From a virus (lineage: Duplodnaviria > Caudoviricetes), in IMG/VR virus record IMGVR_UViG_3300030330_003594, positions 1 to 59,691 of that record: a stretch of 59,691 nt of DNA; one strand, written 5' to 3'. Positions within the stretch are counted from its first letter, which is position 1. Each line of letters starts with the position of its first letter. This document shows positions 764-59,691 of this stretch, in pieces. A program made the position numbers and the translations under genes. The notes under the pieces are model-generated. The model was not told where the DNA came from and made no database searches. It was given only the letters and a program-made list of their open reading frames with translations.

Positions 764-970
764 ATGAAAACTAACAGGCACAAGAAGATCAAGATGAAAA
801 TCGACAAGCTCTTACAGCAGAATGCAAGCTACCAAGCTCAGCACACTTGTGTCAACAACACGCCTGAAGAAAAGAAAAGGATCAACGAGTACTGCGAGAA
901 GAACTTCATTGATCCTATCCGAGAGATCGACTGCCGAACCTACGACCTCGTAAAAAAACAGAGCGATTAA
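764..970 (+). CDS. Hypothetical protein
   Basis: 68-aa ORF preceded by TATCTTTA (749-756); converges on the thioredoxin-like gene. Confidence 0.55.
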   Translation: MKTNRHKKIKMKIDKLLQQNASYQAQHTCVNNTPEEKKRINEYCEKNFIDPIREIDCRTYDLVKKQSD

Positions 971-1332
971 AAGTCGCTCATCAGCACCTCGTCTACTGCC
1001 TCCTGCACATCATCTTGGCTGGCCTCTAGTGTCATCATGATGTTGGCTTGGAAGCGCTTGACTTCTTCCCCTTCGTTGAAGACTACGACAGTAGGGACGA
1101 CGACAATCTTGTGCTCAGTCTGCATCGATGGGTTAGATGCGATGTCAACACGAGATGTCTCGCAGTCGTTCAGGCTTTCGATCCAGGGCACGCTGTTGCC
1201 TGAGTTAAACGAAGCGTTAAACTCGACGACGCATACACCCGATCCGCATACTCCTTTATCCTCCGCAACGTCCACAGAGGTGGCCGCCCAGAAGAATGCA
1301 GAGAGCGCAAACAGGGTTAGTGTTGCTTTCAT
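967..1332 (-). CDS. Exported thioredoxin-fold protein lacking the CxxC site (allele A)
   Basis: Signal peptide; VVEFNASFN in place of F.A.WCxxC; RVDI...HKIVVVPTVVVFNEGEEVKRF matches the Trx C-terminal half with cis-Pro. Confidence 0.75.
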   Translation of the reverse strand: MKATLTLFALSAFFWAATSVDVAEDKGVCGSGVCVVEFNASFNSGNSVPWIESLNDCETSRVDIASNPSMQTEHKIVVVPTVVVFNEGEEVKRFQANIMMTLEASQDDVQEAVDEVLMSDF

Positions 1333-1335: not shown

Positions 1336-1620
1336 TCATCTTAGTTGGTCTATCTTTTCTTCAATACGTTTGATATCCTCCTTCATCTCGGTGATATCTT
1401 CTTGTGTACTCATGATTGTTTGACGGACAAGCTGGTCCTTCATGTCGAACTCCATGCGCGTAATGTCTGGGTCGGGCGGTATGGGCAACTCCTTTGCCTC
1501 TGCGATGTCTGCCTGCAGGGCGAACCACATGGCTACGATTGTGCCAATCCCCGCCGCCAGCATGCCTATTGTCTTTAGGTCTAGCGTAATCTTAGTGTCC
1601 TCCCCAATCTGCTGAGCCAT
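1336..1620 (-). CDS. Single-pass membrane protein with C-terminal coiled coil (allele A)
   Basis: Hydrophobic IGMLAAGIGTIVAMWFAL, Pro-rich hinge, heptad tail; 84/94 residues identical to 57721-58005. Confidence 0.75.
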   Translation of the reverse strand: MAQQIGEDTKITLDLKTIGMLAAGIGTIVAMWFALQADIAEAKELPIPPDPDITRMEFDMKDQLVRQTIMSTQEDITEMKEDIKRIEEKIDQLR

Positions 1621-1621: not shown

Positions 1622-2656
1622 TCAAATAATTACATAGTTGATTCCCAGGGAGAAGTCATGCCACGATCTATCCCAGTACTTGTGGTACTTACCCTCTGCG
1701 AACACTCCAAAGCTTTTGTTAAATCTTTTACCAAAGATAAGGCCGCCAGAGTAATCAAGCCACTGACCACTGTTAACAAACCTATGATAGGAGTACTCTC
1801 CGTCCGTGTCTAGGTGATAGGGGATCAGGTTACCCCAGCTGTGTAGCCAGAAGTTCTTGGTGAAGTGGTAGTAGTCAAACCCAACTACCACAGAATGAAC
1901 CCATTGGTTGTCCAGTTCACCACGCTTCTTGTCTACGTAATCTTCGAGAGCCTGAGGGATTACCACCTCCTCCCACACTTCGTAGCTGCTGGCTACGAGT
2001 GTCCCGTCGGGGCTGAAGAACTCCCCTGTGTTTACGTCAATGCTGTACCCCTCTTGCAGAGCGAGCGAAGTGAAGTGAAGCTGGTTGTTGTCAAGCAACC
2101 ACTCGTTCAGTGGGTCGTATCCGTATGGCTCTGACAACCGTTGCATGATGCCTGCATTGAGGGACAGCTTGCCAATCTTGGCCCTTACCCTTTGTGATGC
2201 CTCGAAGTACCTGACGTCTGCGAATCCATCTTGCAGGAACTCTACCTTAGTGATCCACCTGTCCGCCACGTATCTCAGGAAGTAGTCCTGATCTAGATAG
2301 TTGACGCCCTGCTGCCTCCTGTAGTCTCCCTCGAATAGGAACTCAAAGCCGCTCACCTTTCCGATGGTGGCGGCGTCACCGTATGACTTCTCTGTCCCGT
2401 TGTAGAATGTGTTGGCTCTGTTCTCGTATCCGAAGCGTGCGATCTTGCGGACGCCAGCAGTAAGAGAGTAGTCGAACGGAGTCTCGATCACATCAGTCTG
2501 CAATCCATTGGCTACAGAGAACACCTCTCTATCTGACAAGGAGTTGCCTCCGCTGAAGGCGGTGTAGAACGTAGCAAACTTGAGTGCCTTCTTGATTCCC
2601 TGGCCTGACGCATCAAGGCTGATCAGCAGGGTCAATATGGTTGCGATGTATCTCAT
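1622..2656 (-). CDS. Exported, probable outer-membrane beta-barrel-like protein (allele A)
   Basis: Signal peptide ending ASG|Q; aromatic-rich alternating strands; terminal strand FSLGINYVII. Confidence 0.65.
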   Translation of the reverse strand: MRYIATILTLLISLDASGQGIKKALKFATFYTAFSGGNSLSDREVFSVANGLQTDVIETPFDYSLTAGVRKIARFGYENRANTFYNGTEKSYGDAATIGKVSGFEFLFEGDYRRQQGVNYLDQDYFLRYVADRWITKVEFLQDGFADVRYFEASQRVRAKIGKLSLNAGIMQRLSEPYGYDPLNEWLLDNNQLHFTSLALQEGYSIDVNTGEFFSPDGTLVASSYEVWEEVVIPQALEDYVDKKRGELDNQWVHSVVVGFDYYHFTKNFWLHSWGNLIPYHLDTDGEYSYHRFVNSGQWLDYSGGLIFGKRFNKSFGVFAEGKYHKYWDRSWHDFSLGINYVII

Positions 2657-4794
2657 TGCTTGACGATTCTTTCTACCACGATTCTTCCCTTGTAGTTGAT
2701 GACAACCTCATACAGCCCATTAGGAAGCGATCTGAGGTCGATCTCTCTGTCGCCAGTACAAGATACCACAAGCTGTCCAGAGTGGCTGTAAACGTCTGCA
2801 AATGCTCCGACTGGTCCCTGGAAGTTGATTACTCCAGATGTCGGGTTCGGGTACAGGTGGATCAAACCCATCGCCACGTCCTCTACACTGGTCACGCCTT
2901 GGCTGCAGTACTCGTACATCTCAATGCACACGGCATCCCATCCAACCTCACAGCAGTAGGGGTCAACCTCGATCACCCATGAGTAGCAGTAATCATTGGC
3001 CCAGTATGGTTCCCCTGGGCCAGTGATACATCCAGCATCATATAGGCACTCCTCGTTGGCGGGTACGTTGGCGTACACGTTGTAGTTAGCTGCGTCAGGG
3101 TCCATGCAGCCAGGCATAGGCAACTCACAGCTCCCGTTGTTGGTGTTGGCCATTGGGTCGTAGTTCAACGCCTCGGGGATCGTGCATCCGTAGATGAACG
3201 GGATGCAGCTATTGTTCTCTGTGTTGGCCAGCTCATTATAGTTGAACATGGTAGGGTCAGTGCATCCAAACACAACCTCCTCGCACTCTGCTGGATCGGT
3301 AGCCGCCTCGTTGTAGTTGTAGGCTGTTGGGTCTTGACATCCGACCACCTCTAGCTCATCACACACTCCGTCTCCATCCGTGTCGTTGATGCACTCGTTG
3401 TCGCACCCGTAGTATTCGATAGGGAACGTGCAGTCCCCGTCTACGTTTGCCTCTGGGTTGTAGTTGCAGGCGAAGCTAAGAGTACATCCCTCGATACCAG
3501 GCACACAGAAGTCTCCGCATACTGGGATGCCGCTGTACTTGAATGGGAACTTCTTGATGGCGTCAGACCACGGGTTGGTACCCCCTTCCATGAACACACC
3601 GTTTGGTCCGTCGAAGTAAAATCCACACTGAGAGGCTGTTGTTTCGGCGTTGCCCTGCGTGAAGAACATGACGTTCACACCCTCGCCAGAGTAAAGCGGA
3701 ATCTGAATCTCTTTCTCAAACCCGTCGTTGGGGTGCATGGTGATCGGCCCCCAGATCTCGTCACCCTGCTGCACTCCGATCCAGCTACCGAACCAACCGT
3801 CACCTGCGCCGTCTGTAAGTGTCAGAGTGAACTCACAGTTGTCTTCTGTCTCTAGCGTGTTAGCATCTTCGTTGAAGTTAATGGCACCTGGATCTGTACA
3901 GCCCAGGATCACCTCTGTCTGGCAACTGCCATCGTCGATCACGGCACTGGGGTCATACTCTGTAAACCATGAGTCGGTACACCCCTGAGGGATCGGAGGA
4001 AAGCACGGGTCTACAACGATGATATCGCTACCAATGCTCTCGTATTGAGTGGTGTCACCAACGTAGTACAGCTCATCTCCGCACAGGTTAGACACGAACA
4101 GGTTGCCATCGACGCCACCGTAGCAGCTACCGCACATGCCGTCGCCAAAGGCGTCGTATACGTTGACCTTGAACTCTGATCCGATGGGCAGGCATACAGC
4201 TTCTACAACAGGGGCCCCTACAATAGAATAGCCTGACCCCTCTGCAACTATCTCACCATCTGGGAATGTCATTAAGTCCCAACTGATTTCTGATGCGTAA
4301 GTGTCAGGCGTTACTGTGACAAGAACATTGCTGTATCCTTCTTCACATTGTGCGGGGGGAAAGTCGCATGGGGCCGGGGCGTTGGCCCAAGGGTGGTAGT
4401 TGATAGCACCCGCCTGCATACATCCAAAGATTGGAGGAGGGCACGACAATACCTCAAAGGGAATCGTTTGTTCTGAGGTGCTGAAGTCGTATACTGTAGT
4501 GTCTAGGACGCAGGTGTTGACAGAAAACCAGCCCTCACCAAAACCACAGCAGATGCCGTCGCCGAAAGAGTCGTAGATAGTAAAGGTATAATTACCTACA
4601 GGCAGGGGAAGAAAGGCTTCAACATAGGGATACTCTCCCTGCAATGGAGCCGACCCAGCAACGATAGCATCGCTAGAGTCTCTTACCAGCCACGTTGTCT
4701 CTCCACCGTATGCGTCTCCTTGTATGGAGATAGAAACCCAGCCTGTCTGCGCTGTTGCAAACAGCGGGAACAAAAGGAGAGGTAGAAATCTCAT
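2653..4794 (-). CDS. Cys/Asp-rich secreted protein with type IX secretion (type A) C-terminal sorting domain
   Basis: Start reassigned to MRFLPLLLFPLFATA|Q (ATGA overlap with amidase stop); three D(S/A/G)xGDG modules; GCTDxxAxNY repeats; DTDGDGVCD; CTD LYPNPTSG...SGQLV...LPNGLY...ERIVKQ. Confidence 0.85.
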   Translation of the reverse strand: MRFLPLLLFPLFATAQTGWVSISIQGDAYGGETTWLVRDSSDAIVAGSAPLQGEYPYVEAFLPLPVGNYTFTIYDSFGDGICCGFGEGWFSVNTCVLDTTVYDFSTSEQTIPFEVLSCPPPIFGCMQAGAINYHPWANAPAPCDFPPAQCEEGYSNVLVTVTPDTYASEISWDLMTFPDGEIVAEGSGYSIVGAPVVEAVCLPIGSEFKVNVYDAFGDGMCGSCYGGVDGNLFVSNLCGDELYYVGDTTQYESIGSDIIVVDPCFPPIPQGCTDSWFTEYDPSAVIDDGSCQTEVILGCTDPGAINFNEDANTLETEDNCEFTLTLTDGAGDGWFGSWIGVQQGDEIWGPITMHPNDGFEKEIQIPLYSGEGVNVMFFTQGNAETTASQCGFYFDGPNGVFMEGGTNPWSDAIKKFPFKYSGIPVCGDFCVPGIEGCTLSFACNYNPEANVDGDCTFPIEYYGCDNECINDTDGDGVCDELEVVGCQDPTAYNYNEAATDPAECEEVVFGCTDPTMFNYNELANTENNSCIPFIYGCTIPEALNYDPMANTNNGSCELPMPGCMDPDAANYNVYANVPANEECLYDAGCITGPGEPYWANDYCYSWVIEVDPYCCEVGWDAVCIEMYEYCSQGVTSVEDVAMGLIHLYPNPTSGVINFQGPVGAFADVYSHSGQLVVSCTGDREIDLRSLPNGLYEVVINYKGRIVVERIVKQ

Positions 4795-5210
4795 GAGTCG
4801 AGGTGTGAAAACTTTTCTTGAACGACGAAGCTTGGGCAAGCTTTGTTGGAGTATTCGTTGTGACCGTGGATGGTGATGTCTTTTCCAAAAAGACATCTCA
4901 CACCGTTGACGATTTCTTCAAAAGCGCAAGCCTGATCCTCAGTCATTGTATCTTTCGGAAGCATGCCCTCATCACATCCTCCGATGTAGCATACACCAAC
5001 CGTCGTTTTGTTGTGCCCCTTGACGTGAGCACCTGCCTTGTCGATGGGTCGTCCCAGCTCCACACTACCGTCAAGCCTGATGACGTAGTGGTATCCGATG
5101 TCAGCCCAGCCGTTTCCGTTGACGTGCCAATCACGGATTGTTTCCACGCTGTAGTCTTTGCCCTCGGGTGTAGCCGAGCAGTGCAATACAATTCTGTCAA
5201 TGTTTCTCAT
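4791..5210 (-). CDS. N-acetylmuramoyl-L-alanine amidase endolysin (T7 lysozyme/Amidase_2 type)
   Basis: Zn-amidase motifs IVLHCSAT, DIGYHYVI, GAHVKGHN, HGHNEYSNKACPSF. Confidence 0.93.
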   Translation of the reverse strand: MRNIDRIVLHCSATPEGKDYSVETIRDWHVNGNGWADIGYHYVIRLDGSVELGRPIDKAGAHVKGHNKTTVGVCYIGGCDEGMLPKDTMTEDQACAFEEIVNGVRCLFGKDITIHGHNEYSNKACPSFVVQEKFSHLDS

Positions 5211-8200
5211 GGTGTAGCAAATGCTTTTTCTGTTAGAATAGATTCAAGACCTGCCTCAGATTTTATACCTAAGTAGAAGAAAGCAAAATTAAAGTATGCA
5301 TTGTACTCTTCCTCAGTCATCTCCCTCTCTTTTGCCTTGAGAACAGAAGCGATTTTCTTAGAGCTTTCTTTGGACAATCTACGCATTTCGTTCGCATGCT
5401 TGCTGTACTGCTCAGGCATTATGTTTTGCAGCAGCTTTTCAGCAACAGCGGGCTTCAAAGCAGACTTGAATTTTGATGCGCTGATGTTTTTATCTAAGGT
5501 GGTCAAGTCGCTCTCTGCTTGCATCTTCAAGATGCGCATGAGTTTGTCAATACCGATCTCTTCACCAGCTTCAAGGTAAGCTTGAAGCTCTGGGTCTTCA
5601 CTGAAAGCTTGTGTCACAAACTCGTATGCCGCAGCTTCCTCCTCGCTCGTCAGAGATCTGTTCATAGGCATGTCGTCCATAGCCTTGGCAAAGTATTCCA
5701 ACTCTTTGACACCCAAGCCCACAAGGTTGGCGCCGTGTAGTGTTGCCCTCAAGACCGTGCTGATCTGCATGTGCTCTTGATCTTCAGGCCGCACAAATCT
5801 TTCACTTCCAGAACTAGTCGTATACGACTTGCCATCTCTGTTTAGTCGATCAATAGCAGTGGTAATATCTCTGAACTTCTGTCCCGCCGGGCCAGTCAAC
5901 CCAAGCAAACTATACAAGGCTCTAGCCCCTGGCTCTTTTTCATTTTGCGCCATGTCCGCATAGCTATCTCCATACGTTGGGACAGCACCACCGTACTTTT
6001 TGAACAAAGCAAACTTGTCTTCTTTTTCAAGGCCAGGAATGTCATAGTCCGCTTCGTTGAAGAAAACGTAATAGTTGAAAGCATCTCGAACGTTGTCGTC
6101 TACCATACCGATAGATGGAACGGGAAGAGCGTCAACCACAGCACCCACACCAGCCTCCTTGATGGCCTGTGCAGGATCAAACTCCTTTTCTTCGTCATCA
6201 TCATCACCCATCACTTGTTTGACAATCTCGTTAAAGAGTGCCCGGGTCATTTGAGATGCCAGGTGAAAGGCAAACAAGGACGACATCGTTGCAGCAAAAC
6301 CTTTGGCTCCATCCTTTCGTGCTTGCAGATCCTCTCCCATCAGGAGTCTCCCCACGTCTGCTGTGAGCGATCTTTTCGTGTTGATGGCAAAACTTTGGAA
6401 CGGGAAGAACGCTTGCATCAAGCTTCGACCAGCACCACCAGCTTTTTTGTAAATCGCCGCTGCCATTCGAGCACTTGAGGTGTTCTGATCTTTCTCAAGC
6501 ATGTTGTCGGCATACGCCAAGGCTTCCGGATTTGCATTAGCAGCTTCGCTTGTCCAATCGATATCAGATGCGCTCGTCACAATGCCCTGTTCAATCAAGA
6601 AGTCTGCATAGTAAGCAAAGAAAGAAGCAACAGCAACTGCCTTATCCGTTGTAGTCAAAGCCCACAAAGACTTGTTTGTGAACATGTCTCTCAAGCGTCG
6701 GAATCTAGACCTGTCAAAGTTTGTGTTACCCTGAAACGGGTCGATGTTTCCCGCACGGTAGTCTCTCAAAAATGCCGCACTTCTTTTGAGCAACTCGAAC
6801 TTGTCTCCAGGAAGCTTGACAGTAGGATCGCTCAAGACCCTACGCTTGCCCTCAATGTCTGTTCCAACGAACGTCAATGCAAGGATGCTCGTTGACTCCT
6901 GAATGAAATACATCATGGAGCTGATGCTCCGCATATTCATGAATGTCGCCAAGCCGACGGTGCCCTGTTTGACAACCTGAACAAAAATCGATCCGAACGC
7001 ACCAACAACCGCCGCAGCACGCAAGGATTCGATGGGGTTCAACAATGTCTTATCGCCAACCCGCACACGACTGCTGAAGATGAACGGTTCGCTTTGCGTT
7101 TCAACTTGCAAGAAATCCCTGACGTACTGCTTAAGCTGACCAGCAGCTTCGTCTTTTACCAAGTTGCCAAACGCTTCAGTGCCAAACGCATACTCCATCG
7201 CAAGGATGTCCCCCAAAGCTGTAGTGATCAATGCATTCTCTCTCAGGGTGTTGTGATTGATGTCGATGAAATTTAATCCCAAGATGGCATCACCACCGAC
7301 GGCTCTTTGCTCTCTTTCGAAAGTTGCGCCTGGAGTTTTCTGTACTCCGCCTCTTGATGAGGCTTGCATCCTGCTAACCAGTGCATTGCGCAAGGCCATA
7401 ACAGATTCTACATCCTCATCTTTAGAGGTTTTCCTAATCTGGAATGGCGTGTAGTTGTCAAGGACGCTAAGCTCTTTACCAAGAAATCTTTCTGCAAAGA
7501 TTTCCAAGTCGGGCCTCGCTCGTTCGTGCAGATCGACCATGAAGTCCACCATCTCTACAACCTCAGGGCGCCCTGTCTGCACACGGTTTTGCAACGCCTC
7601 TAGCGTTGCTTCTCCTGTAAACAAGAAGTCAAAAGCTTCTTTGAACTGGTCGATCGTTTCCTGAACAGCACTTTCATTTTGCTCTATGTCCTCGATCGTA
7701 GCCTGCATAGAATCACGCAAGGCTTTATACCATGCCGCTTTCTTTTCTGCAAGACGCTGCTCAAACTCCTCTTGCGTCCGAGAAGCAGCACGAGCCTCTT
7801 CAACAAACTCTTTTGGCATCTGACGAGACATGCTGTATATCTGCGACAGTGCTTGACTCAGCTTCGATGTAATATCTGTTTTGCCCTTCAGAGAAAACTT
7901 CTTGTTGATCTCGTCAATCTTGTCTTGCAATCCTCTGGCAGTTTCCAAGTGCCTTTGTTCAAAAGCATTGATGGCCATGATTACGTCTTGCAATCCGATG
8001 GCGACCTTGATTCGAGCAATGTCTCTGTTGCTCACACGGAAAAGATTCCTGAGCAGACTAGACAAGTTATCCAACACACCAAGAACGGCTGTTCGCTTTG
8101 ACGAAATACCTCTGTCTGTCAGTTCCGTGATTTTGTCGGCATAGTTGATGCGCCCCTTGGTGAGTGCCGCCAAGTATCCGAGTCCAAATGTTCTGCCATT

Positions 8201-11200
8201 GACGAGGTAGTCGTTGAGCTTAAACTCGATCGCCAAGAGGTGGTGCTTCTCAAGTTTGTCTAATCTTTTACGAATTTTGTTAAACACCTCATCATCTTCG
8301 ATGTTGGCGTTTTGAGGCAAGCCCAGGATCAAGCGGAACCCTGGGTCAGCAAGGATAGCCTCGGCATTGAAAAGCAACAGAGGCATAATGCCTTCATCAA
8401 TGATCAAAGATTTCTTTAGATCAACCAGCGCCTTCTCCTCTTTGGCAAGCTCCAAGTAGATAGTCTCCAGATCGTCCACTTGAGCTGGATCAAGGCCCAG
8501 CTTCTCTGCCATCTTGTTGACCCTTTTCTGCGTGGCACTAAGCCTGCTCTCGAAGAACTTCTTCAAGATAGCTTCGTACTCTGCTTCAAACGTGGTTTCT
8601 TCACCCCTCAAAAGCTTACGCTCTACGGCTCTCTCAGCCCTAGCCCGAAGCTCCGCCTGCTGCTGTGCTTGCTCGATTGCTTTGAATGCATCGAGCTGCG
8701 CTTGTAATCCTTTTACCTCATTCAACTGAGTGGCGTTGAACACAAGATTGCCCTCCTCATCCTTGGCAAACCGTCCACGGCGCATGTTGTTGTTGACCGT
8801 GTTGAGCAAATCCATGAACGCCTCAAGCTCGTGGAGAGGAATCAAGGACGCCTTGATGCGAGACAAGGCTGCTGCAAGATCAGCGTATGTCGTGAAGTCT
8901 CGTTGCTTCGACTTACGCTTCAACGTGCTTTGCAACCTACGAATGAGCTGCAAGTTTTTAAGGTGCCTCTCCATAGCACCCTTAGCATCTTGCTCATCAA
9001 AGATGGCAGCGAGCTTGTCTAAGTGAGCATCGATGTACTCTAACTCGTTGCCCTTCAGCTTCTTAGCCGACGAACGAGACAACTGAGACATGACCTTGAA
9101 GAACTCTGTCAGTTGCTTTACAGTGAAGACTTTGGATGCGCCCTTGTCCTTGGCCATCCGATCTTTGATCAGCTTGCGGGCCTCACGGATGAACTGCTGC
9201 ACCGTAGACACTTTGTTTTTCAAAGCGTCCAGCTCTTCTCTCAGCTTCTTTGCCTCGTTAGAAAGCTTGTTCTTTTCTCTTCTAATCTTAGAGACAACCT
9301 TACCCTGCTCCGTGCGTCCGACTCTGCGGCCCCGAGCAAACTGCACTGCCTTCTTGTAGGTTTCCTCAGCATCCTTTTTGCTCATGCCAGAATCCTCTAG
9401 CACCTTCAAGACTTCCTCCTTCTTGGGCTTGAACAGTCGGATTTGATCGCTCTTTTCTAGAACGAGCTTTTTCTTTTTACCTCGGCCCACCTGCTTCAGG
9501 GTGAACCCTGGCTCCGTCATGATATCTGCGACGGTGCTCACAATTCCCTGGCGCTTCGTGACAGACTCAACCGTGGTGTCTGCATCGGACAAAGACTCAA
9601 TGCTGTTGCGGATCAGATCAATCTGGCCCTCAGAAAACACCCCGCCTACATCACCAGCAATCGTTTTGATCAGGGCTGGCTTGGAAAGAGCTGCGATATC
9701 TGCGCCCGCCTTGGCCAGTTGCTGTACAATTTCTGTCGGCACGATGTCCACGACATTGAACAGAGAGGTAGGTGTACCTACAAACTTGCCCAGGATAGAG
9801 TGTTGATAGGTGTCGTGAACGTCAGAGTCCTCTTGGATACCCGTCGGCTCCAACACCCCTACGATGTCACCCGTTTGCGCATCAATCTGGGCAAGGTATT
9901 CGTCTCTAAGGAGTTGGTTGAAGACGTCTTGCTTCGGCACGCCAAGCTCGTCGTGCAAGAATCTATGGAACTCCAGGGATGGCTTGACGCCCATCCCTTG
10001 GTGGAGCATGTTTTGCACAAATGTCTTGCGTGATGGGTGATCGACCACGTCTTTGCCTCGGCTGTTCAGGGCCTTCAGCACGCCCATCCACTTCTTTGTT
10101 TCTGTCTTGTCTTTCAAAAGAGAGTTTGTGATTTGCACAAACTCATCAAACGACCCCTCTACAATCTCGACCCCACCAAAGGTTTTGCCGATGTTTCTTT
10201 TCATCCCAGCTTCGATCTCCTGGATCAACACCTTGGACGTACCCTTAGAGAAGTTGTGTGCCGACTTGGGTGAGCCAGACATCAGGAAGATGTAGTCAGC
10301 TCGACCGACCCTGTCATTCAACGTCTTGGGAGACAAGCCTGAAGCCCAGACCACATCATTGTCTTGGTTTTGCTGGTCGGTACTAAATCCGATGCCCCCC
10401 AAAACCTGTGCCTCAACGCCTGTATCAGGGTTGCTATATGTGCCTCTCTTCAACTGGTCAGCCATCCACACCCACACGACAGGGTTGCGATTGTTTTCAG
10501 CCTTGAAGTCAGACAACAGCTTGCCAATATCTACCCTCGGCTGGTTGGCCATGTAGGTTCCTGCCACATTGATGGCTTGCTTCTTGGCCTGGACTTGGGC
10601 GGGATCAACAGGAAGCCCCTCTTCAGTGACAGATTCTTGCGAGTCCAACCCCGGCTGCACACTGTTGCCGTCCTCATCTACCTGTGCCTCTAAAATTTGA
10701 GCACGAACTTCACGATCGTCCAGCGTTGCATCATCCTCCTCTTCATCGATGGCTGTTGGGCCCTCTTGCAGTCTCAGGCCAGCTTCGATAATGGCTTCGG
10801 TGTCGGCCACGGCCTCACCCCTAGCCATCGTTTGCGTAGCGGCGTCGATGGCGTCAACAACGGCTTTGAGCTTTGGGTCTTTGAAAGAAGTGCCAAAGGT
10901 GCGAGACACAAACTCCTTGAGCCCTGAGATCAAGCCCGCCTTGAACTCAATGCTCAACGTTCCTGATGTAATCAACGACTTGATCTCTGTCAACAGCTCG
11001 TCTGCCGCAGTATCGTTCTCCGAAACGACTTGCATCAAAAGCTTTCTCTGCATAGCAGGGTCTGCCTCAGCCAAAGCAAGGACGGATCGTTGCTCTTCAG
11101 GCAGGTATGCCGCAATAAATCTCGAGAAGACCTCGATGTTTGGAATCAGACGTGCCAACGTTGCGGCAAGACGTCTGGTGCCTGCCTTGGTATCTTCTTG

Positions 11201-14200
11201 ATTTTCGTTTTGCAAAGTGGCCTGGTGAAAGGCTTCGTGATATGGCGTGTTGGCCTGTAGTGCAGGCAAGAACAAATGCACCTCAGCACTTTGCACTGTG
11301 CCATCCTCCTTTCTCTTGTACACCACATGCACACCTCTAGCAACACGCTCCCCTGTAGCTTTTTCATACGCTTTCGTGGTGCCGTGCAAAAACACCTTGC
11401 CACCTGTCCCAGCTTCAGTGACCGTGGCAATAATGTTCTTGATGTTTTGCAGTCCACGAATGATGTCTTCTCTGTTTGAAAAGGCGGTGGTGACGATTTT
11501 GCCTGATGCGATGATCCTGTCGATGACAGAGCCCGCATTTTTCGATGTCAGCTCAACCGTGTTTCCTCTACCTACCCTGCCGTATTCAGTGATATCGGGG
11601 TCCGTAGATCCCACCTCTCTGATGACAGCCTGCACTTCAGGATCTTCCAAAGCAAGGTCTACAGAGTTTTCGTTCTGAGCATATTTGCTTTCGATTTCAA
11701 ACTTCTTCTTGAAGCTTTCTCTAATCTGGTTCTGAAGCAGATTTATTTGTGCCTCGTAAGTAGCGACCGCAGCTTTGTTATTAGCTGCTTTGGCTTGTGC
11801 AAGTAGGGCTCTAAGCTTGCGAGCTTCTTTACGAGCCCCTGTAATGTCTTGATTGTGACCGAAAATAGCTTCCGCATCTTCGTCGGAAACGTTTGCAAGG
11901 AACGATAAGTCTCTTGCAGCCACTCTATGCTGTTCTTCTTGAACAGCAAGCATCTTTCTTTTAATGTCATCTCTTTCTTGTTTTGTTGTTGCATTTTTGA
12001 ACTGCTCACTGAGCTCTTCGTATCTGTTTTGCAGACGAATTTGATCTTTCAGGCGGAACTTACTTGCCACATACGATGGCGCTCGAACAATGCCAGTTTG
12101 TATGCCTCCTGCTGCCACGCCCACCACGAAAGAGTCAGCTACCTGACCCCACGAGACGGACAACTGTGCCTTCTGTATTTCTTTTGCGGCGATGCTTTTT
12201 TCCAGACGGTCTTGGACCTCTGATGCAATACCTGGTGTCTCGATCTTTTTCTGGATATCCTCGATCTCACGATCCAATGCCAGCCTCTCGGCGTAGTTGC
12301 GCAACCCTTGATCGGCAACAGAAACCAAGCCCTCCTCAATACCCTCCTCCAAGAACCTGAACGCTCTGTTGGTTGTGACTTTGTCAAAGACATTTTTTGC
12401 CTGCAACAAGACACCCTTTTCGGCGGGGACAGTGCCCCACAAAAGAGCCTTACCGCCACGCCCTGCCAGTGGCTTGAGACCTACAGCTTTGCGGATGGCA
12501 TCAGCAGAACCTAATTCCGCCTTCATGAAAAGCTTTTCTGACAGATACTCTATGCCACCAGCCAGCGTGCCAAAGGCCAGCTTTTCACCCGAAGTAAGAT
12601 TTGAATTTTGGTTCAAATCTTCTATTGTAGACCCTGCGCTTCCCAGTGCAAAGCTGATAAGTGTTGCTTCAGTAGCCCCTGTTGCCAAGCCTACAATTTG
12701 TAAGCCAATCTGTGGGAGTGCTTCGGCTACCATGCTTGTAAACATGACGCCTCGTGCATACTCGTCCCCAAGGCTTTGTCCAAACACACCTCTTTGAATC
12801 TGCTCTAGGGTCAGTCCTTTTTTAAGATTGCTGGCCTGTGAGATACCCGCTGAGAGCTCCCCGAAGGTAGGAGCTTGATCAGGTTCTACACCTAAGATTC
12901 CTGCGTAAATATCTTGAAATGATGCAGAGTCAAAAAAATCTTCATCTCCTTCTGCCGTGTCTAGGATGGCATCAGTAAAGTTTAAGACACCTGAAAAAAC
13001 CATACCGACCGTCTTGAAAAGGTTGGGGGCGATAAGATCCTCCTCCAACTGACGGCCTAAAAACTCTCCTGACGTTCTGTACGCTTGCAGAGCCATGTCG
13101 CTTTCCATAGCAACCTGATCCAAGGCTACTTGCCCGATAAGCTCAGAAATATTGTACGCTCTACGCTCCAAACCCAACACCTCATTCGCCTCGTTGTAGG
13201 TGTTGATGATGTCGGTGCGTCTGCTTGCCAAATCTGCTTGCACTTCTTGGCGCTCCTCCTCTGTTACTGCTGTGTTGAAGCGATCCACAAAAGCCTCAAG
13301 CTCTGAGATAGCGGCCTTCTTTCCGTCCTCTGCCTGCACGACCTCATTGCGTGCGTTCCAATACCCCGCAATTTTCTTGTACTTGTCCTCTGAAAACTCA
13401 ATGTTTCTTCGCAAGTAGTAGTCTGATGCCTTCTCAAACGTGTTAATTTTTTCAGGCATGTTTGGCTGAATGGCAGCCAGCTCTTCGTCCGTCTGAGGGA
13501 TATAAGAAGAGTTGATGTTGCCTAGCTGACTCTCATAAAAGGGCATGCTCATACCCTCCTCATCTTCAACCTCAGGCAAGGCTTGAACCTGCTCTTCGGT
13601 GTACTTGCCGATACCAAACTCATTGTTGATAATCGACGTCTTGAGGTTCTCTTTTGATGAGGATAGCTCTGCACGATCGACGATCAAGCCAGCACTCAGC
13701 ATCACATCGTTGATATCCTTTGTGGTCACTGAGGTGCCTGTAAACAGAGGTGTGTCTTTTAGCGTGTCAAAGATTTCTTTTGAAAAACCCTCCCTTTCCT
13801 GTTCGCTAAGCGCATTGCCCAACACCCCTCTACCCTGCAACCACTTTTGCGTTTCCTTGAAGATGAAGTATTCTCTTTGGTTCGCTTGGTACTCAGATGG
13901 TGCGGATCCTTCAGTGCTGTATGCCTCAATAACCGACTGAGTATCAGTCTCATACAGCTCTTGTATGTCTTCTGGAGAAAACTCTCTACCACGCCCTGTC
14001 TCTTCAGCGGACATGGTGGCCATCCTTTCATAAGGATCTACCGCCTCACCAAAAAGCGATGACAGATACCCAGACCTATTTTCTTCAGCTTGCTTTCTGG
14101 CGCTCTCTATGTCTTGCACGGGCTCGAAGCTTGAATCGCCTGTAAGCGATTCTAAGCCTGCAACATAGTCGGAAGAGAAAGCTGACTCTTTTTTTTTTGG

Positions 14201-14398
14201 ATTGATGCCTGACAAATAGATCAGGTCTCTTTCGTCACCCTTGAAGCCAGCACTGTTCATCACGGTCATGATTCTGTTGAAATCATCCGTTTGACCCATC
14301 TGACGAATCAAGTCTTCCTTGGTTCCGAGGTATCCTTGCGCTTGAAGGACAGTGTAGATCTGATCAATCCGATCTACGTTGTATGATCCGTTTGACAT
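5207..14398 (-). CDS. Giant (3063 aa) internal virion/ejected polyvalent protein with zincin-like motif
   Basis: Last of three genes after the tail muzzle; helical and coiled-coil; PYHEAFH followed by ADELLTE; no polymerase DxDGD/DFDID motif seen. Confidence 0.7.
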   Translation of the reverse strand: MSNGSYNVDRIDQIYTVLQAQGYLGTKEDLIRQMGQTDDFNRIMTVMNSAGFKGDERDLIYLSGINPKKKESAFSSDYVAGLESLTGDSSFEPVQDIESARKQAEENRSGYLSSLFGEAVDPYERMATMSAEETGRGREFSPEDIQELYETDTQSVIEAYSTEGSAPSEYQANQREYFIFKETQKWLQGRGVLGNALSEQEREGFSKEIFDTLKDTPLFTGTSVTTKDINDVMLSAGLIVDRAELSSSKENLKTSIINNEFGIGKYTEEQVQALPEVEDEEGMSMPFYESQLGNINSSYIPQTDEELAAIQPNMPEKINTFEKASDYYLRRNIEFSEDKYKKIAGYWNARNEVVQAEDGKKAAISELEAFVDRFNTAVTEEERQEVQADLASRRTDIINTYNEANEVLGLERRAYNISELIGQVALDQVAMESDMALQAYRTSGEFLGRQLEEDLIAPNLFKTVGMVFSGVLNFTDAILDTAEGDEDFFDSASFQDIYAGILGVEPDQAPTFGELSAGISQASNLKKGLTLEQIQRGVFGQSLGDEYARGVMFTSMVAEALPQIGLQIVGLATGATEATLISFALGSAGSTIEDLNQNSNLTSGEKLAFGTLAGGIEYLSEKLFMKAELGSADAIRKAVGLKPLAGRGGKALLWGTVPAEKGVLLQAKNVFDKVTTNRAFRFLEEGIEEGLVSVADQGLRNYAERLALDREIEDIQKKIETPGIASEVQDRLEKSIAAKEIQKAQLSVSWGQVADSFVVGVAAGGIQTGIVRAPSYVASKFRLKDQIRLQNRYEELSEQFKNATTKQERDDIKRKMLAVQEEQHRVAARDLSFLANVSDEDAEAIFGHNQDITGARKEARKLRALLAQAKAANNKAAVATYEAQINLLQNQIRESFKKKFEIESKYAQNENSVDLALEDPEVQAVIREVGSTDPDITEYGRVGRGNTVELTSKNAGSVIDRIIASGKIVTTAFSNREDIIRGLQNIKNIIATVTEAGTGGKVFLHGTTKAYEKATGERVARGVHVVYKRKEDGTVQSAEVHLFLPALQANTPYHEAFHQATLQNENQEDTKAGTRRLAATLARLIPNIEVFSRFIAAYLPEEQRSVLALAEADPAMQRKLLMQVVSENDTAADELLTEIKSLITSGTLSIEFKAGLISGLKEFVSRTFGTSFKDPKLKAVVDAIDAATQTMARGEAVADTEAIIEAGLRLQEGPTAIDEEEDDATLDDREVRAQILEAQVDEDGNSVQPGLDSQESVTEEGLPVDPAQVQAKKQAINVAGTYMANQPRVDIGKLLSDFKAENNRNPVVWVWMADQLKRGTYSNPDTGVEAQVLGGIGFSTDQQNQDNDVVWASGLSPKTLNDRVGRADYIFLMSGSPKSAHNFSKGTSKVLIQEIEAGMKRNIGKTFGGVEIVEGSFDEFVQITNSLLKDKTETKKWMGVLKALNSRGKDVVDHPSRKTFVQNMLHQGMGVKPSLEFHRFLHDELGVPKQDVFNQLLRDEYLAQIDAQTGDIVGVLEPTGIQEDSDVHDTYQHSILGKFVGTPTSLFNVVDIVPTEIVQQLAKAGADIAALSKPALIKTIAGDVGGVFSEGQIDLIRNSIESLSDADTTVESVTKRQGIVSTVADIMTEPGFTLKQVGRGKKKKLVLEKSDQIRLFKPKKEEVLKVLEDSGMSKKDAEETYKKAVQFARGRRVGRTEQGKVVSKIRREKNKLSNEAKKLREELDALKNKVSTVQQFIREARKLIKDRMAKDKGASKVFTVKQLTEFFKVMSQLSRSSAKKLKGNELEYIDAHLDKLAAIFDEQDAKGAMERHLKNLQLIRRLQSTLKRKSKQRDFTTYADLAAALSRIKASLIPLHELEAFMDLLNTVNNNMRRGRFAKDEEGNLVFNATQLNEVKGLQAQLDAFKAIEQAQQQAELRARAERAVERKLLRGEETTFEAEYEAILKKFFESRLSATQKRVNKMAEKLGLDPAQVDDLETIYLELAKEEKALVDLKKSLIIDEGIMPLLLFNAEAILADPGFRLILGLPQNANIEDDEVFNKIRKRLDKLEKHHLLAIEFKLNDYLVNGRTFGLGYLAALTKGRINYADKITELTDRGISSKRTAVLGVLDNLSSLLRNLFRVSNRDIARIKVAIGLQDVIMAINAFEQRHLETARGLQDKIDEINKKFSLKGKTDITSKLSQALSQIYSMSRQMPKEFVEEARAASRTQEEFEQRLAEKKAAWYKALRDSMQATIEDIEQNESAVQETIDQFKEAFDFLFTGEATLEALQNRVQTGRPEVVEMVDFMVDLHERARPDLEIFAERFLGKELSVLDNYTPFQIRKTSKDEDVESVMALRNALVSRMQASSRGGVQKTPGATFEREQRAVGGDAILGLNFIDINHNTLRENALITTALGDILAMEYAFGTEAFGNLVKDEAAGQLKQYVRDFLQVETQSEPFIFSSRVRVGDKTLLNPIESLRAAAVVGAFGSIFVQVVKQGTVGLATFMNMRSISSMMYFIQESTSILALTFVGTDIEGKRRVLSDPTVKLPGDKFELLKRSAAFLRDYRAGNIDPFQGNTNFDRSRFRRLRDMFTNKSLWALTTTDKAVAVASFFAYYADFLIEQGIVTSASDIDWTSEAANANPEALAYADNMLEKDQNTSSARMAAAIYKKAGGAGRSLMQAFFPFQSFAINTKRSLTADVGRLLMGEDLQARKDGAKGFAATMSSLFAFHLASQMTRALFNEIVKQVMGDDDDEEKEFDPAQAIKEAGVGAVVDALPVPSIGMVDDNVRDAFNYYVFFNEADYDIPGLEKEDKFALFKKYGGAVPTYGDSYADMAQNEKEPGARALYSLLGLTGPAGQKFRDITTAIDRLNRDGKSYTTSSGSERFVRPEDQEHMQISTVLRATLHGANLVGLGVKELEYFAKAMDDMPMNRSLTSEEEAAAYEFVTQAFSEDPELQAYLEAGEEIGIDKLMRILKMQAESDLTTLDKNISASKFKSALKPAVAEKLLQNIMPEQYSKHANEMRRLSKESSKKIASVLKAKEREMTEEEYNAYFNFAFFYLGIKSEAGLESILTEKAFATP

Positions 14399-56424: not shown

Positions 56425-56821
56425 ATACGACAATAAAGCACGAAGGGCTACGATCGCATGCATGGAGAAACAGGGCTACATCGTGACGGAAAATCCCGAT
56501 CCCTACGCACAAGACTTGATTGCTGAGCCTAGCTTTTTGTCTAAGCTCAATCAACCTTTCTTCGTGGAGTGTGAGGTCAAGACGGTGTGGCAAACACCAG
56601 GTTTCCCCTACTCTGATGTGCAATTGCCTGCCCGCAAAGAGAAGTTCTTTGACAAGCAGACCTTGTTTTTTATCTGGAGCCAAGACCTTTCACGGGCCGC
56701 ATGCTTTTGGAGTCAAGACATCAAGCACCTACCCACGCATGAGGTGTCAAACAAAATGATGGCAAAGGGGGAGAGGTTTTTCAAGATACCCCTGTCCTAC
56801 GTTAAGTTTGTCCTAGCATGA
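56384..56821 (+). CDS. PD-(D/E)XK-family nuclease-like protein
   Basis: YAQDLI...VECEVKTVW...RKEKF. Confidence 0.6.
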   Translation: MAPNKPFDKLLHHEYDNKARRATIACMEKQGYIVTENPDPYAQDLIAEPSFLSKLNQPFFVECEVKTVWQTPGFPYSDVQLPARKEKFFDKQTLFFIWSQDLSRAACFWSQDIKHLPTHEVSNKMMAKGERFFKIPLSYVKFVLA

Positions 56822-56907
56822 ACTATTGGACAACCCACACGACGGTTACAAATCAAGATTGCGTGATCGTGCCCTGCTACAAGGGCTACATGATTGCAAT
56901 TCGCTGA

Positions 56908-57342
56908 TTACTTCTTGGCCTTTTCGATGGTGCGACCTGCGAAGTATGCACCAAAAGCTGTGAGCATCAAGATCTGAAGAAGGTCAACGTAAGCGTCTTT
57001 CACATTGAACGCTACGTTGTCCATGCTATCAACAACCATAGTCACCATGAACATGCTCATCAAAGCAATCAAGGTGACGGGACGGATAAGCTTGGCCAGC
57101 TTTACATCGCTGCCCATGTCTGCCTTCCATCTCTCTGTTACATTGTTTTGAAAAGCGATTTCTGCATCTACCGCAGCTATGCCCGCAGCCGTATCGACTT
57201 CAGGATCTTTCTCAATCAAGTTCTTGACAACACCCAACCCACCGCTATCGGGGAGCAGGTCACCTACCACAGACAAAACATTGGGAGCTTTGTCTTTCAA
57301 CCAAGATCCTAGCTTGGTGTCTTTGATTTTCTTTTCACTCAT
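56908..57342 (-). CDS. Putative holin (3TM/GTA-holin-like)
   Basis: RWKADMGSD...LIRPVTL, two hydrophobic helices, AYFAGRTIEK. Confidence 0.72.
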   Translation of the reverse strand: MSEKKIKDTKLGSWLKDKAPNVLSVVGDLLPDSGGLGVVKNLIEKDPEVDTAAGIAAVDAEIAFQNNVTERWKADMGSDVKLAKLIRPVTLIALMSMFMVTMVVDSMDNVAFNVKDAYVDLLQILMLTAFGAYFAGRTIEKAKK

Positions 57343-57351
57343 AGTCTTGTG

Positions 57352-57717
57352 TTAAAAGTCACTCATTAAGATATCGTCGATGGCTTCTTGCACCTCATCC
57401 CTGCTTGCCTCCATTGTCATCATGATGTTGGCCTGAAATCTTTTGACCTCTTCCCCCTCGTTGAACACAACAATGGTTGGCACCACAACAATCTTGTGCT
57501 CCTGCTGAAGAGCAGGAGCAGTTACAATGTCCACACGGCTTGTTTCGCAATCGTTCAGTTTTTCTATCCATTCCACGCTGTTTTGGGAATTGAAAGATGC
57601 GTTGAACTCTACTACACAGATACCGATGTCACATATTTTGTCATCCGCTACATCTGCCACAGAGGTGGCCGCCAACAATAGCGCAGAGGATGCAAACAGG
57701 ATTGATAGGATTTTCAT
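57352..57717 (-). CDS. Exported thioredoxin-fold protein lacking CxxC (allele B)
   Basis: Homolog of 967-1332; ICDIGIC, VVEFNASFN, VVPT. Confidence 0.75.
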   Translation of the reverse strand: MKILSILFASSALLLAATSVADVADDKICDIGICVVEFNASFNSQNSVEWIEKLNDCETSRVDIVTAPALQQEHKIVVVPTIVVFNEGEEVKRFQANIMMTMEASRDEVQEAIDDILMSDF

Positions 57718-57720
57718 TTG

Positions 57721-58005
57721 TCATCTTAGTTGATCTATCTTTTCTTCAATACGCTTGATGTCTTCTTTAATCTCGGTGACATCATCTTGCGTAGTCATGA
57801 TTGTTTGACGAACCAGTTGGTCTTTCATATCAAACTCCATCCTTGTGATCACAGGGGCGGGCGCAACGGGCAGCTCTTTGGCCTCAGCAATATCTGCCTG
57901 TAAAGCGAACCACATAGCCACAATAGTCCCGATGCCTGCGGCTGCCATACCTATGGTTTTGAGGTCTAGCGTTACTTTAGTGTCTTCCCCTATCTGCTGT
58001 GCCAT
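57721..58005 (-). CDS. Single-pass membrane coiled-coil protein (allele B)
   Basis: Homolog of 1336-1620. Confidence 0.75.
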   Translation of the reverse strand: MAQQIGEDTKVTLDLKTIGMAAAGIGTIVAMWFALQADIAEAKELPVAPAPVITRMEFDMKDQLVRQTIMTTQDDVTEIKEDIKRIEEKIDQLR

Positions 58006-58006
58006 G

Positions 58007-59041
58007 TCAAATGATTACATAGTTGATGCCAACAGAGAAGTCATGCCATGACCTGTCCCAATACTTGTGATATTTACCCTCTGCAAAGACACCAAAACTC
58101 TTATTGAATCTTTTACCAAATATAAGGCCGCCAGAATAATCAAGCCACTGCCCACTGTTGACGAAACGGTGGTAAGAGTATTCCCCGTCGGTGTCAAGAT
58201 GATATGGAATGAAGTTGCCCCAAGTGTGTACCCAGAAGTCTTTTGTGAAGTGATAGTAGTCGAAACCCAACACGATTGAATGGACCCACTGATTCCTCAG
58301 GTCGCTCCTCTTTTTATCTACGTAGTCCTTCAAGACCTCGGGGATGACAACCTCCTCCCAAACGTCGTAGCTGTTTGCGACGACTTCCCCATCTGGATTG
58401 AAGAACTGTCCAGTGTTGACATCTATATTGTACCCTTCTTGTATAGCGAGTGAGGTGAAGTGCAACTGATTGTTGTCCAAGACCCACTCATCAAGTGGGT
58501 CGTATCCGTAGGGCTCAGACAATCTTTGCATAATACCTGCGTTGAGCGACAGCTTACCAAGCTTGGCACGAAACCTTTCAGATGCCTCGAAGTATCGGAC
58601 GTCAGCAAACCCGTCTTGCAAAAACTCTACTTTAGAAATCCACTTGTCGGCGACGTATCTCAGGAAGTAATCCTGATCGAGATAGTTGACGCCCTGTTGT
58701 CTTCTGTAGTCGCCTTCAAATAGAAACTCAAAGCCACTCACCTTGCCGATAGTAGCGGCATCACCGTATGACTTTTCTGTTCCGTTGTAAAAGGTGTTCG
58801 CCCTGTTCTCATATCCAAAGCGGGCAATCTTTCTGATGCCCGCTGTCAAAGAGTAATCGAAAGGTGTCTCTACAATGTCGGTTTGCAGGCCGTTGCCTAC
58901 AGAAAAGACCTCCCTGTCGGACAGAGAGTTTCCACCACTAAACGCTGTGTAGAAGGTCGAAAACTTCAGAGCTTTCTTCAGAGACTGGCCCGACGCAGTG
59001 ATCGAAAAGCCAATCAACAAAATGGTTGTGATGTACCTCAT
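58007..59041 (-). CDS. Probable outer-membrane beta-barrel-like protein (allele B)
   Basis: Homolog of 1622-2656; same length; ASG|Q signal peptide. Confidence 0.65.
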   Translation of the reverse strand: MRYITTILLIGFSITASGQSLKKALKFSTFYTAFSGGNSLSDREVFSVGNGLQTDIVETPFDYSLTAGIRKIARFGYENRANTFYNGTEKSYGDAATIGKVSGFEFLFEGDYRRQQGVNYLDQDYFLRYVADKWISKVEFLQDGFADVRYFEASERFRAKLGKLSLNAGIMQRLSEPYGYDPLDEWVLDNNQLHFTSLAIQEGYNIDVNTGQFFNPDGEVVANSYDVWEEVVIPEVLKDYVDKKRSDLRNQWVHSIVLGFDYYHFTKDFWVHTWGNFIPYHLDTDGEYSYHRFVNSGQWLDYSGGLIFGKRFNKSFGVFAEGKYHKYWDRSWHDFSVGINYVII

Positions 59042-59691
59042 TGTCTTACGATTCTTTCTTTTGTAATGCGACCTTGGTAGTTTGCCATGATCACATACAC
59101 CCCTGGAGATGGGAGGTTGATTCGAGTGTCTTGTGTCTCAACTACCCTCCTGCCTGATGCGTCGTAGATCGTAATCACTGTTCCTGTAGGCGCCTCCACA
59201 TTGATGATGTTTTGCGTAGGATTAGGGAAGAAGTACGTCATCTGTCCGACATCCGAGGTGATGGACGACACCTGCCCTGCACAGTATTCGTACTGGTTGA
59301 TGCACACCGCATCCCAGCCGACCTCGCAGCAGTAAGGGTCAACCTCGATCACCCACGAGTAGCAGTAGTCGTTGGCCCAGTATGGCTCACCTGGGCCAGT
59401 GATGCATCCAGCGTCGTACAGACACTCTTCGTTGTTGGGTACGTTAGCATACACGTTGTAATTGGCAGCGTCAGGGTCCATACACCCAGGCATAGGCAAC
59501 TCACAGCTTCCATTGTTGGTGTTGGCCATAGGGTCGTAGTTCAGCGCCTCGGGGATCGTGCAACCATAGATAAACGGGATGCAGCTATTGTTCTCTGTGT
59601 TAGCCAGCTCATTGTAGTTGAACATGGTAGGGTCAGTGCATCCAAACACAACCTCCTCGCACTCTGCTGGATCGGTAGCCGCCTCGTTGTA
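59038..59691 (-). CDS. 3' part of the T9SS cargo gene (allele B); continues across the overlap into 3316-4794
   Basis: Cys-rich repeats nearly identical to allele A; CTD FFPNPTQN...YDASGRRV...PGVYVI...ERIVRQ. Confidence 0.85.
   Translation of the reverse strand, partial: YNEAATDPAECEEVVFGCTDPTMFNYNELANTENNSCIPFIYGCTIPEALNYDPMANTNNGSCELPMPGCMDPDAANYNVYANVPNNEECLYDAGCITGPGEPYWANDYCYSWVIEVDPYCCEVGWDAVCINQYEYCAGQVSSITSDVGQMTYFFPNPTQNIINVEAPTGTVITIYDASGRRVVETQDTRINLPSPGVYVIMANYQGRITKERIVRQ

Follow-up and report, generated by a model that had tools for sequence, protein, structure and literature searches.

How phages without spanins open the outer membrane of their hosts is an open question, and it is raised again by a gene cluster in the tailed-phage record IMGVR_UViG_3300030330_003594, the whole of which (59,691 bases; the window) was analyzed here. 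When this IMG/VR record is closed into a circle, its minus-strand late operon ends with genes for an amidase, a type-A cargo protein for type IX secretion (T9SS), a predicted outer-membrane β-barrel, a 94-amino-acid (aa) coiled-coil protein with a membrane segment, a putative thioredoxin (Trx)-fold protein lacking CxxC, and a holin. The genes of the set between amidase and holin are packed with gaps of 1–9 nt or with overlaps, including ATGA. The preliminary description of this DNA had treated all four as one cassette. In our survey the conserved unit appears instead to be the trio of barrel, coiled-coil and Trx-fold genes; the T9SS-tagged cargo is a variable add-on of one of two clades, and the secreted protein more generally looks like a variable companion. 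We tentatively favor, at somewhat less than even chances, a reading in which the trio would be a late-made assembly that spans the envelope and serves lysis at its outer-membrane step; the secreted protein would be an accessory at the surface. A little more doubtful still is the wider proposal that it would constitute a new, lipoprotein-free outer-membrane-breaking machine (a 'barrel spanin') of a large and abundant set of uncultured marine Bacteroidota phages. In either form the trio is a concrete, conserved candidate for opening the outer membrane.

Relatives of the barrel are numerous. A collection of 5.8 billion proteins held 3502 at E ≤ 0.001, with no informative name or Pfam domain among the 120 matches listed, and a 50%-identity library held 403 representatives. 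In IMG/VR, 195 of 201 candidate stretches carried relatives of the window barrel (clade 1), and a profile of a second type, about 32% identical to the window barrel, recovered at least 590 relatives among 598 stretches (clade 2). The trio thus falls in two deep clades; no IMG/VR loci were found for the most distant barrel relatives (P0262, P0173 and P0140). Queried by tblastn with three barrel clades and with the 94-aa protein (the latter at E ≤ 1), 50,697 deposited phage records gave no match, and a collection of one genome per species (185,579 species) gave only six loci, all on contigs of metagenome-assembled genomes (MAGs), three labeled Bacteroidota and three labeled with other taxa, which we take to be binning errors. 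Because deposited phages gave no match and so few MAG loci were found, the set appears to be confined to uncultured phages. One 342-aa viral UniProt protein in BFVD, A0A516LKJ4, is related to the barrel in structure and sequence (Foldseek E 2.8e-21, 24% identity), and at least one barrel member may therefore sit in a deposited record beyond the reach of tblastn.

The phage itself is uncultured. Its large terminase subunit (TerL), portal and virion proteins are recognizable, and TerL matches 87 deposited phage records at about 41–47% identity, of which 86 infect Flavobacterium, Cellulophaga, Tenacibaculum or Maribacter (Flavobacteriaceae). The Trx-like protein, the barrel and the cargo carry signal peptides, most of them ending just before Gln, and cleavage before Gln is a habit of Bacteroidota signal peptides. 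The TerL relatives, these signal peptides and the T9SS tag together point to a host among the marine Flavobacteriia.

Within the two clades the trio travels together. All four genes were present in 71 of 80 clade-1 loci, the rest being cut by contig ends or by the calling of open reading frames (ORFs). Barrel, coiled-coil and Trx-like genes occurred together in 60 of 80 clade-2 loci, and in 59 of the 80 the Trx gene directly followed the coiled-coil gene. Identity to the window was 62–65% for the barrel, 55–64% for the coiled coil and 53–66% for the Trx-like protein, compared with 46–48% for TerL, 32–39% for the portal, 45–49% for the holin and only 31–38% for the cargo, which is a variable partner with mosaic N-terminal modules. 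We regard the trio as the constrained unit because it is more conserved than TerL and portal and the cargo is less so. The trio has no known relatives, and since its conservation exceeds that of the terminase it must be under strong constraint whatever its function. Among closer relatives (L004–L009) the set is 84–91% identical to the window and the primase-helicase 50–54%. With the holin included, the envelope genes of these genomes span 72–92%, and the gap to the primase-helicase therefore suggests mosaicism, with different histories for the late/lysis and replication modules.

The 344-aa protein is predicted to be an outer-membrane β-barrel of the 12-strand type. Its signal peptide ends ASG/Q, an α/β region is inserted at about residues 176–250, and its C-terminus reads NYVII (family consensus NYVIF), which resembles an outer-membrane β-signal. 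The AlphaFold2 (AF2) model, with a predicted local distance difference test score (pLDDT) of 68.5, matched NanC and NalP in Foldseek (E 3e-6 to 3e-5), and VIA-align placed the EstA translocator first (Z 14.8; root-mean-square deviation (rmsd) 4.4, 204 aligned), followed by KdgM (14.0), NanC (13.9), NalP (13.1) and OMPLA (12.4). These are generic 12-strand-type barrels, the best of them including 12-strand autotransporter translocators and FapF, with no T9SS barrel among the matches listed. No family was found for the protein in Pfam, PHROGs or NCBIfam. None of 46 barrel sequences matched the named T9SS outer-membrane models of NCBIfam (PorP/SprF, PorV, PorQ and others) at E ≤ 1, and Pfam returned nothing relevant for 10 divergent full-length relatives, one FGE-sulfatase match lying outside the barrel-like part. 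An alignment of 22 barrels, down to 24% identity, retained seven invariant residues (five Gly, E105 and Y263) along with conserved Arg, Glu, Ser, His and Asn. The barrel is also conserved at 73–100, a part modeled with low confidence. An enzyme reading of the OMPLA or LpxR kind was dropped because no convincing catalytic triad emerged and S255 and H272 would not be neighbors in the strand register. In a minority of clade-2 loci (L103, L106, L107, L112, L114 and L144) a clean lipoprotein signal (..LLISC ATPKKCCAQ..) precedes the usual mature N-terminus of the barrel, so that some lineages may have a lipid-anchored barrel.

The 94-aa protein had been described as i-spanin-like in build, and its features agree: a single hydrophobic transmembrane (TM) segment at residues 17–35, a Pro-rich hinge (LPVAPAP), and then 41 residues with hydrophobic side chains at 9 of 12 a/d heptad positions, a pattern count rather than the result of a coiled-coil program or a structure. 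It contains no cysteine. The length of 94 aa is kept in 50 of 53 unique relatives, and 26 columns are invariant in 42 sequences. It has no Pfam family and only weak PHROG matches, and a protein-atlas look-up returned unnamed viral clusters. In five clade-2 loci (L158, L160, L163, L168 and L169) a second coiled-coil-like gene follows the Trx gene and adjoins the holin or endolysin. The Trx-like protein has a hydrophobic N-terminus (residues 3–21, a predicted signal peptide). The Pfam Thioredoxin model reached 19.1 bits, under its cut-off of 23.5, over the C-terminal half only; TIGR01068 matched at E 4e-4, and phage thioredoxins matched residues 56–96 in tblastn. The site of CxxC reads FNA.FN..N, none of the 42 members in the alignment has CxxC, and C57 alone is nearly invariant. 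Without CxxC the protein, judged on its sequence, cannot act as a conventional redox enzyme. At L021:9304-9606 and in 10 more clade-1 loci an extra gene of 100–120 aa lies between the coiled-coil and Trx genes; its product is similar to the YfiM lipoprotein family (phrog_26616, 'lipoprotein'; NCBIfam 9.6e-9, under the cut-off), yet its signal peptide is of the ordinary kind.

The cargo had been said to start across the amidase stop, and it does so, by ATGA at 4794-4791, provided that Met35 of the 747-aa ORF is taken as its start, a choice that also yields the signal peptide MRFLPLLLFPLFATAQ. Its C-terminal domain (CTD) is of T9SS type A (TIGR04183, 33.3 bits against a cut-off of 23; Pfam Por_Secre_tail, PF18962, 28 bits against 27), as it was in all five relatives tested, and the modeled CTD superimposes on that of the substrate NucA in a solved T9SS complex (8glk_D; TM-score 0.84, rmsd 1.6 over 75 columns). 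From the tag and the flavobacterial host, the cargo is presumably exported by the host T9SS and its CTD removed. The AF2 model (pLDDT 73.2) shows three β-sandwich 'GDG' modules joined by repeated Cys-rich GCTDP..NYN linkers. No enzyme fold was found among its structural matches, and residues 18–460 retrieved only unnamed viral clusters from the protein atlas. Clade 2 is without a large T9SS cargo; beside the trio in many of its loci stands a secreted protein of 180–240 aa with similar 'GDG' motifs, and none of six such neighbors tested had a detectable T9SS CTD.

The two flanking lysis genes of the window are readily assigned. The amidase matches Pfam Amidase_2 (PF01510; 44.7 bits, cut-off 26, E 2.2e-11) and phrog_822 (E 1.3e-51), has no signal or TM segment, ends ...QEKFSHLDS, and by its start overlaps the stop of a 3063-aa gene by 4 nt. 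The 144-aa protein, whose ATG lies 9 bases beyond the Trx-like stop, is a predicted holin by its family profile and membrane segments: the match to phrog_3427 spans residues 52–144, a TM scan placed hydrophobic segments at 82–100 and, more weakly, at about 120–137 after a soluble N-terminal part of about 80 aa, and tblastn found annotated holins in nine phage records over residues 64–144 only. The position beside lysis genes seen in this genome recurs in its relatives. A locus was scored as linked if a homologue of a holin or an endolysin lay no more than 1.5 kb from the set. Clade-1 homologues were found by tblastn with the window holin and amidase and with representatives of the holins and M15 endolysins of the loci (for the M15 type, phrog_894 at 1.4e-28), and clade-2 homologues with hidden Markov models; one cluster (c93) was left out of the lysin counts as its sequence looked structural. 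By this measure 63 of 80 clade-1 and 41 of 80 clade-2 loci were linked. A holin was near in 56/80 and 36/80 loci of clades 1 and 2, respectively, an endolysin in 47/80 and 30/80, and both in 40/80 and 25/80. Counting only loci with a unique barrel sequence left 52 of 64 linked in clade 1, and among loci flanked on each side by 1.5 kb or more of sequence the figures were 46/57 for clade 1 and 36/54 for clade 2.

Linkage was kept across about 10 gene orders, which weigh more than the raw counts because shared ancestry inflates the latter. These orders include amidase-set-holin; holin-set; set-M15 endolysin-holin; coiled coil..Trx-cargo-barrel..holin; and barrel..coiled coil-Trx-cargo-M15. Clade 2 contributes, among others, barrel-226aa-60aa-coiled coil-Trx-M15-holin; barrel-coiled coil-Trx-holin; coiled coil-Trx-barrel-holin; and holin-barrel-coiled coil-Trx. 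Loci without a lysis homologue often have other small TM proteins nearby (clusters c12, c63, c69 and c229).

The absence of a lipoprotein o-spanin, previously stated for the cluster, extends to the whole record. A six-frame lipobox scan yielded six short ORFs, all of them antisense to larger genes or with a mature part of a few residues, and no plausible lipoprotein o-spanin or unimolecular spanin (T1 gp11 type) in any frame. Pfam Rz (Phage_lysis, PF03245) and Rz1 gave no match at E ≤ 1 in the record, which excludes only those families, spanins being very diverse. Across the surveyed loci a lipobox pattern occurred in 25 of 1494 clade-1 and 17 of 1555 clade-2 ORFs, almost all of which were barrel or Trx-like proteins. 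The sole o-spanin-like candidate in 160 loci is a 115-aa ORF between the coiled-coil and Trx genes at L071:9309-9656, with a lipobox-like MTIASC and a C-terminal helical tail. In the accessible text of an earlier survey, 91 of 677 phages are listed as spanin-less, Bacteroides and Croceibacter phages among them, and the untested idea is raised that 'an OMP could act as an o-spanin', OMP being an outer-membrane protein (Kongari et al. 2018, PMC6139136). A 2025 survey, as far as its accessible text goes, says that Bacteroidetes phages carry unimolecular spanins only (PMC12596118). No description of this set, or of a barrel acting as an o-spanin, was found in the literature searched, supplements lying outside that search.

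In the reading that we favor, the trio would be made late, together with holin and endolysin, and would form an assembly across the envelope, with the helix protein in the inner membrane, the Trx-fold protein as a periplasmic connector and the barrel in the outer membrane. Once the endolysin had removed the wall, this assembly would break or open the outer membrane, taking the place of the lipoprotein-based spanins absent from these phages; the variable secreted protein, exported by the T9SS in clade 1, would be a cell-surface accessory outside the core machine. We infer the envelope locations, the contacts within the trio, its timing and its role in lysis from the genes and their order, targeting signals, folds, co-occurrence and linkage. 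One protein for each envelope layer (a TM segment with a heptad helix, signal peptides, a barrel fold) plausibly supports a part in lysis. Linkage that survives rearrangement, tight packing with lysis genes, the want of any other spanin candidate and the strong constraint plausibly count for it as well. If the reading is true, the trio answers how spanin-less phages of Bacteroidota finish lysis and confirms the idea of an outer-membrane protein in place of an o-spanin.

The closest functional parallel would be the two-component spanins such as lambda Rz/Rz1, which likewise lie in or beside the lysis cassette and combine a small inner-membrane coiled-coil partner, anchored by an N-terminal TM segment, with an outer-membrane partner; such a pair would reach across the envelope and work once holin and endolysin have acted. 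The outer-membrane partner here is a predicted 344-aa β-barrel rather than a small lipoprotein, and a third, periplasmic Trx-fold partner is added. Furthermore, the set has no homology to Rz/Rz1, its helix protein has no cysteines, it is much more conserved than spanins usually are, and its role is a prediction. Spanin-free routes through the outer membrane are also on record. The disruptin of phiKT, gp28, is a small cationic peptide that provides such a route. Membrane-active endolysins provide another, as named in the accessible part of the 2018 survey (PMC6139136). Both differ from the trio in being single small cationic peptides or endolysin tails, and none was seen here, the C-terminus of the amidase included.

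Several observations weigh against this reading. Charges flanking the TM segment of the 94-aa protein (+2/-3 before, +1/-3 after) do not fix its orientation. Only 59 aa of the protein lie beyond the membrane, and it lacks cysteine, unlike Rz; at a rise of 1.5 Å per residue its 41-residue helix would measure about 6 nm, too short to cross the periplasm alone. Spanins usually evolve fast, and the trio is more conserved than the terminase. No recognizable lysis homologue lay within 1.5 kb in 11 of 57 clade-1 and 18 of 54 clade-2 full-flank loci, and the linkage counts are inflated by shared ancestry. The hypervariable, adhesin-like cargo is left unexplained by a membrane-disruption model, and the autotransporter translocators among the best barrel matches would fit display as well as disruption. 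Finally, the cultured relative Elemovirus elemoF is without the set, and by its endolysin it has no lipobox protein, only three small TM proteins. Going without a spanin is therefore characteristic of the wider group, and on its own it is no reason to give that job to the trio; nor can the mutual exclusion with Rz/Rz1 that had been proposed as a check be shown, since this cassette-less phage is equally without a lipobox protein at that position. Complex prediction for barrel 20–344, Trx-like 23–121 and coiled coil 36–94 scored 0.01 against a mark of 0.32; it was run without controls and carries no weight either way.

The cargo is also the starting point of the strongest alternative, which we consider somewhat unlikely, namely that the genes form a module for surface display or exclusion. 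The barrel would then serve specifically to anchor the variable secreted protein at the outer membrane or to export it, the Trx-fold protein would be a periplasmic chaperone for this Cys-rich cargo, and the helix protein a tether or regulator of the assembly. The displayed protein would mask or bind receptors, so that superinfecting phages or released progeny would not be lost on infected cells or debris, or else it would make infected cells stick to new hosts; proximity to lysis genes would reflect late, strong expression only. A genuine type-A CTD, β-sandwich and adhesin-like modules without an enzyme fold, and the contrast between a mosaic, variable cargo and a conserved barrel all suit this reading, as do the secreted GDG-module protein beside the trio in clade 2 and the likeness of the barrel to autotransporter translocators and FapF. 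The sampled population also contains two alleles of the set side by side (described below), and these broke the assembly. A parallel is found in the variable T9SS-tagged genes of 'Cryophage', tied by the authors of that report, in its accessible part, to competition between strains or to superinfection (Bellas et al. 2020, PMC7468147). That phage likewise has a Bacteroidota host and type-A T9SS proteins whose genes are hypervariable between variants; they are enzymes and a PA14 protein in metagenomic islands, and the accessible text describes neither a trio nor linkage to lysis genes (PMC7468147).

A dedicated display role is harder to reconcile with other results. Models of the named T9SS outer-membrane families do not recognize the barrel, the small secreted neighbors in clade 2 have no detectable T9SS CTD, and some loci have the trio without such a neighbor. 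Persistent placement by endolysin or holin through many rearrangements is not required for display, and we know of no exclusion proteins conserved to the extreme degree of the trio. The nearest host systems differ as well. In SprB/SprF and PorP-type pairs a gene for a T9SS-tagged cargo is followed by an overlapping gene for an outer-membrane barrel of about 340 aa, as here. Those pairs have type-B CTDs and barrels of the PorP/SprF family, whereas here the CTD is of type A and the barrel has no T9SS family match; the set is also phage-encoded and comes with two further proteins.

Control of lysis timing is a further, rather improbable explanation. The 94-aa protein, similar in size and build to T4 RI, would be an antiholin-like regulator, and together with the barrel and Trx-fold protein it would sense the state of the envelope or superinfection and delay or trigger the holin. 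It is a small, N-terminally anchored protein near a holin with a large soluble domain, and the second coiled-coil gene copies beside holin or endolysin in the five clade-2 loci named above would be in keeping with such a role. Against this, the companions of the 94-aa protein are the barrel and Trx-fold genes, the latter mostly directly after it in clade 2, and not a single holin family; the protein also occurs in loci without a holin homologue nearby, and it has no sequence similarity to known antiholins.

The single minus-strand run from amidase to holin, already proposed from a join at the 77-nt overlap, rests on the structure of the record, which IMG/VR classes as linear and to which CheckV assigns a completeness of 100. 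A diverged second copy of the cargo, barrel, coiled-coil and Trx-like genes lies at 967-4896, with the amidase and the 3063-aa gene upstream, and the last 77 nt of the record exactly repeat an internal stretch of it (Table 1). The two copies align at 77.4% nucleotide identity over 1722 nt and at 90.2% over 410 nt. The exact 77-nt run stops right where the record does, and the longest other exact run within the 410-nt alignment measures 29 nt, so we read the repeat as the k-mer overlap of an assembler and not as chance. Closure there gives a circle (3239-59614) of 56,376 bp and restores an intact 710-aa cargo frame that contains no stop and shares 91.5% identity over 698 aa with the cargo of L001 and L002, which is unbroken there. 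In L001–L003 the amidase, cargo, barrel, coiled-coil, Trx-like and holin genes are contiguous on single contigs, one of them 55,807 bp. It is thus well supported that the assembly has the shape of a lollipop, in which a circular genome of about 56.4 kb carries a tail, 1-3238, from a second variant. The tail (allele A) is of the L009 type: its coiled coil is 100% and its Trx-like protein 97% identical to those of L009, with the same plus-strand neighbors. A real duplication, with a linear genome bearing a diverged copy of the set at each end and an amidase-to-holin run that was never one stretch, agrees with the linear class and with the 10–29% nucleotide difference between the copies, yet it is very improbable given an exact run that ends precisely at the record end, the intact cargo frame on closure, the closed arrangement on single contigs, and a genome (L009) with both the allele-A arrangement and the allele-A flanks.

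The reservation that allele A has no holin after its Trx-like gene dissolves, since genomes of that type (L004–L009, L011 and L014) place the holin directly upstream of the cargo. The fetched flanks of these same genomes yielded no endolysin homologue, and the giant protein is directly followed by the holin; the endolysin must therefore lie elsewhere or belong to another family.

Table 1. Positions of the set, its two alleles and adjoining features in the window.
Feature	Coordinates	Strand	Remarks
Predicted holin, 144 aa	56908..57342	-	phrog_3427 'holin', E 2.3e-21; last gene of the minus-strand late run
Putative Trx-fold protein, allele B, 121 aa	57352..57717	-	Predicted signal peptide; weak Pfam Thioredoxin match
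Membrane coiled coil, allele B, 94 aa	57721..58005	-	TM 17-35, Pro-rich hinge, heptad helix
Predicted outer-membrane β-barrel, allele B, 344 aa	58007..59041	-	AF2 model and structural matches
Cargo, 3' part, allele B	59038..59691	-	Open at record end; continues at 3238 downward after the 77-nt overlap
77-nt overlap	59615..59691		Exact copy of 3239-3315; closes circle 3239-59614
Cargo as in record, 713 aa from Met35	2653..4794	-	5' part above 3315 from the circle; 2653-3238 (3' part) from allele A
Amidase endolysin, 139 aa	4791..5210	-	Pfam Amidase_2, phrog_822
Barrel, allele A	1622..2656	-	88% aa identity to allele B
94-aa coiled coil, allele A	1336..1620	-	89% identical to allele B; 100% to the L009 copy
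Putative Trx-fold protein, allele A	967..1332	-	72% identity with allele B, 97% with the L009 copy
Neighbors after the allele-A Trx gene	764-970, 238-747, 3-260	+	Same as in L009
3063-aa protein	5207..14398	-	Precedes the amidase in the same late run; 95% identical in L001-L003

A scan of 56300-59691 for sigma-70 promoters and terminators gave counts at the level of shuffled sequence, the promoter model being unsuited to Bacteroidota. Two repeat structures lie elsewhere in the window. The 483-aa gene at 34943-36394, which matches phrog_30390 in two stretches, contains three tandem 135-nt copies at 35601-36005 (76–79% identical to the reference copy) that correspond to a 45-aa protein repeat. 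At 30105-32310, four tandem minus-strand genes for proteins of 173–191 aa share a 41-nt end repeat at a spacing of 525–580 nt and are probably a paralogous array in the structural region.

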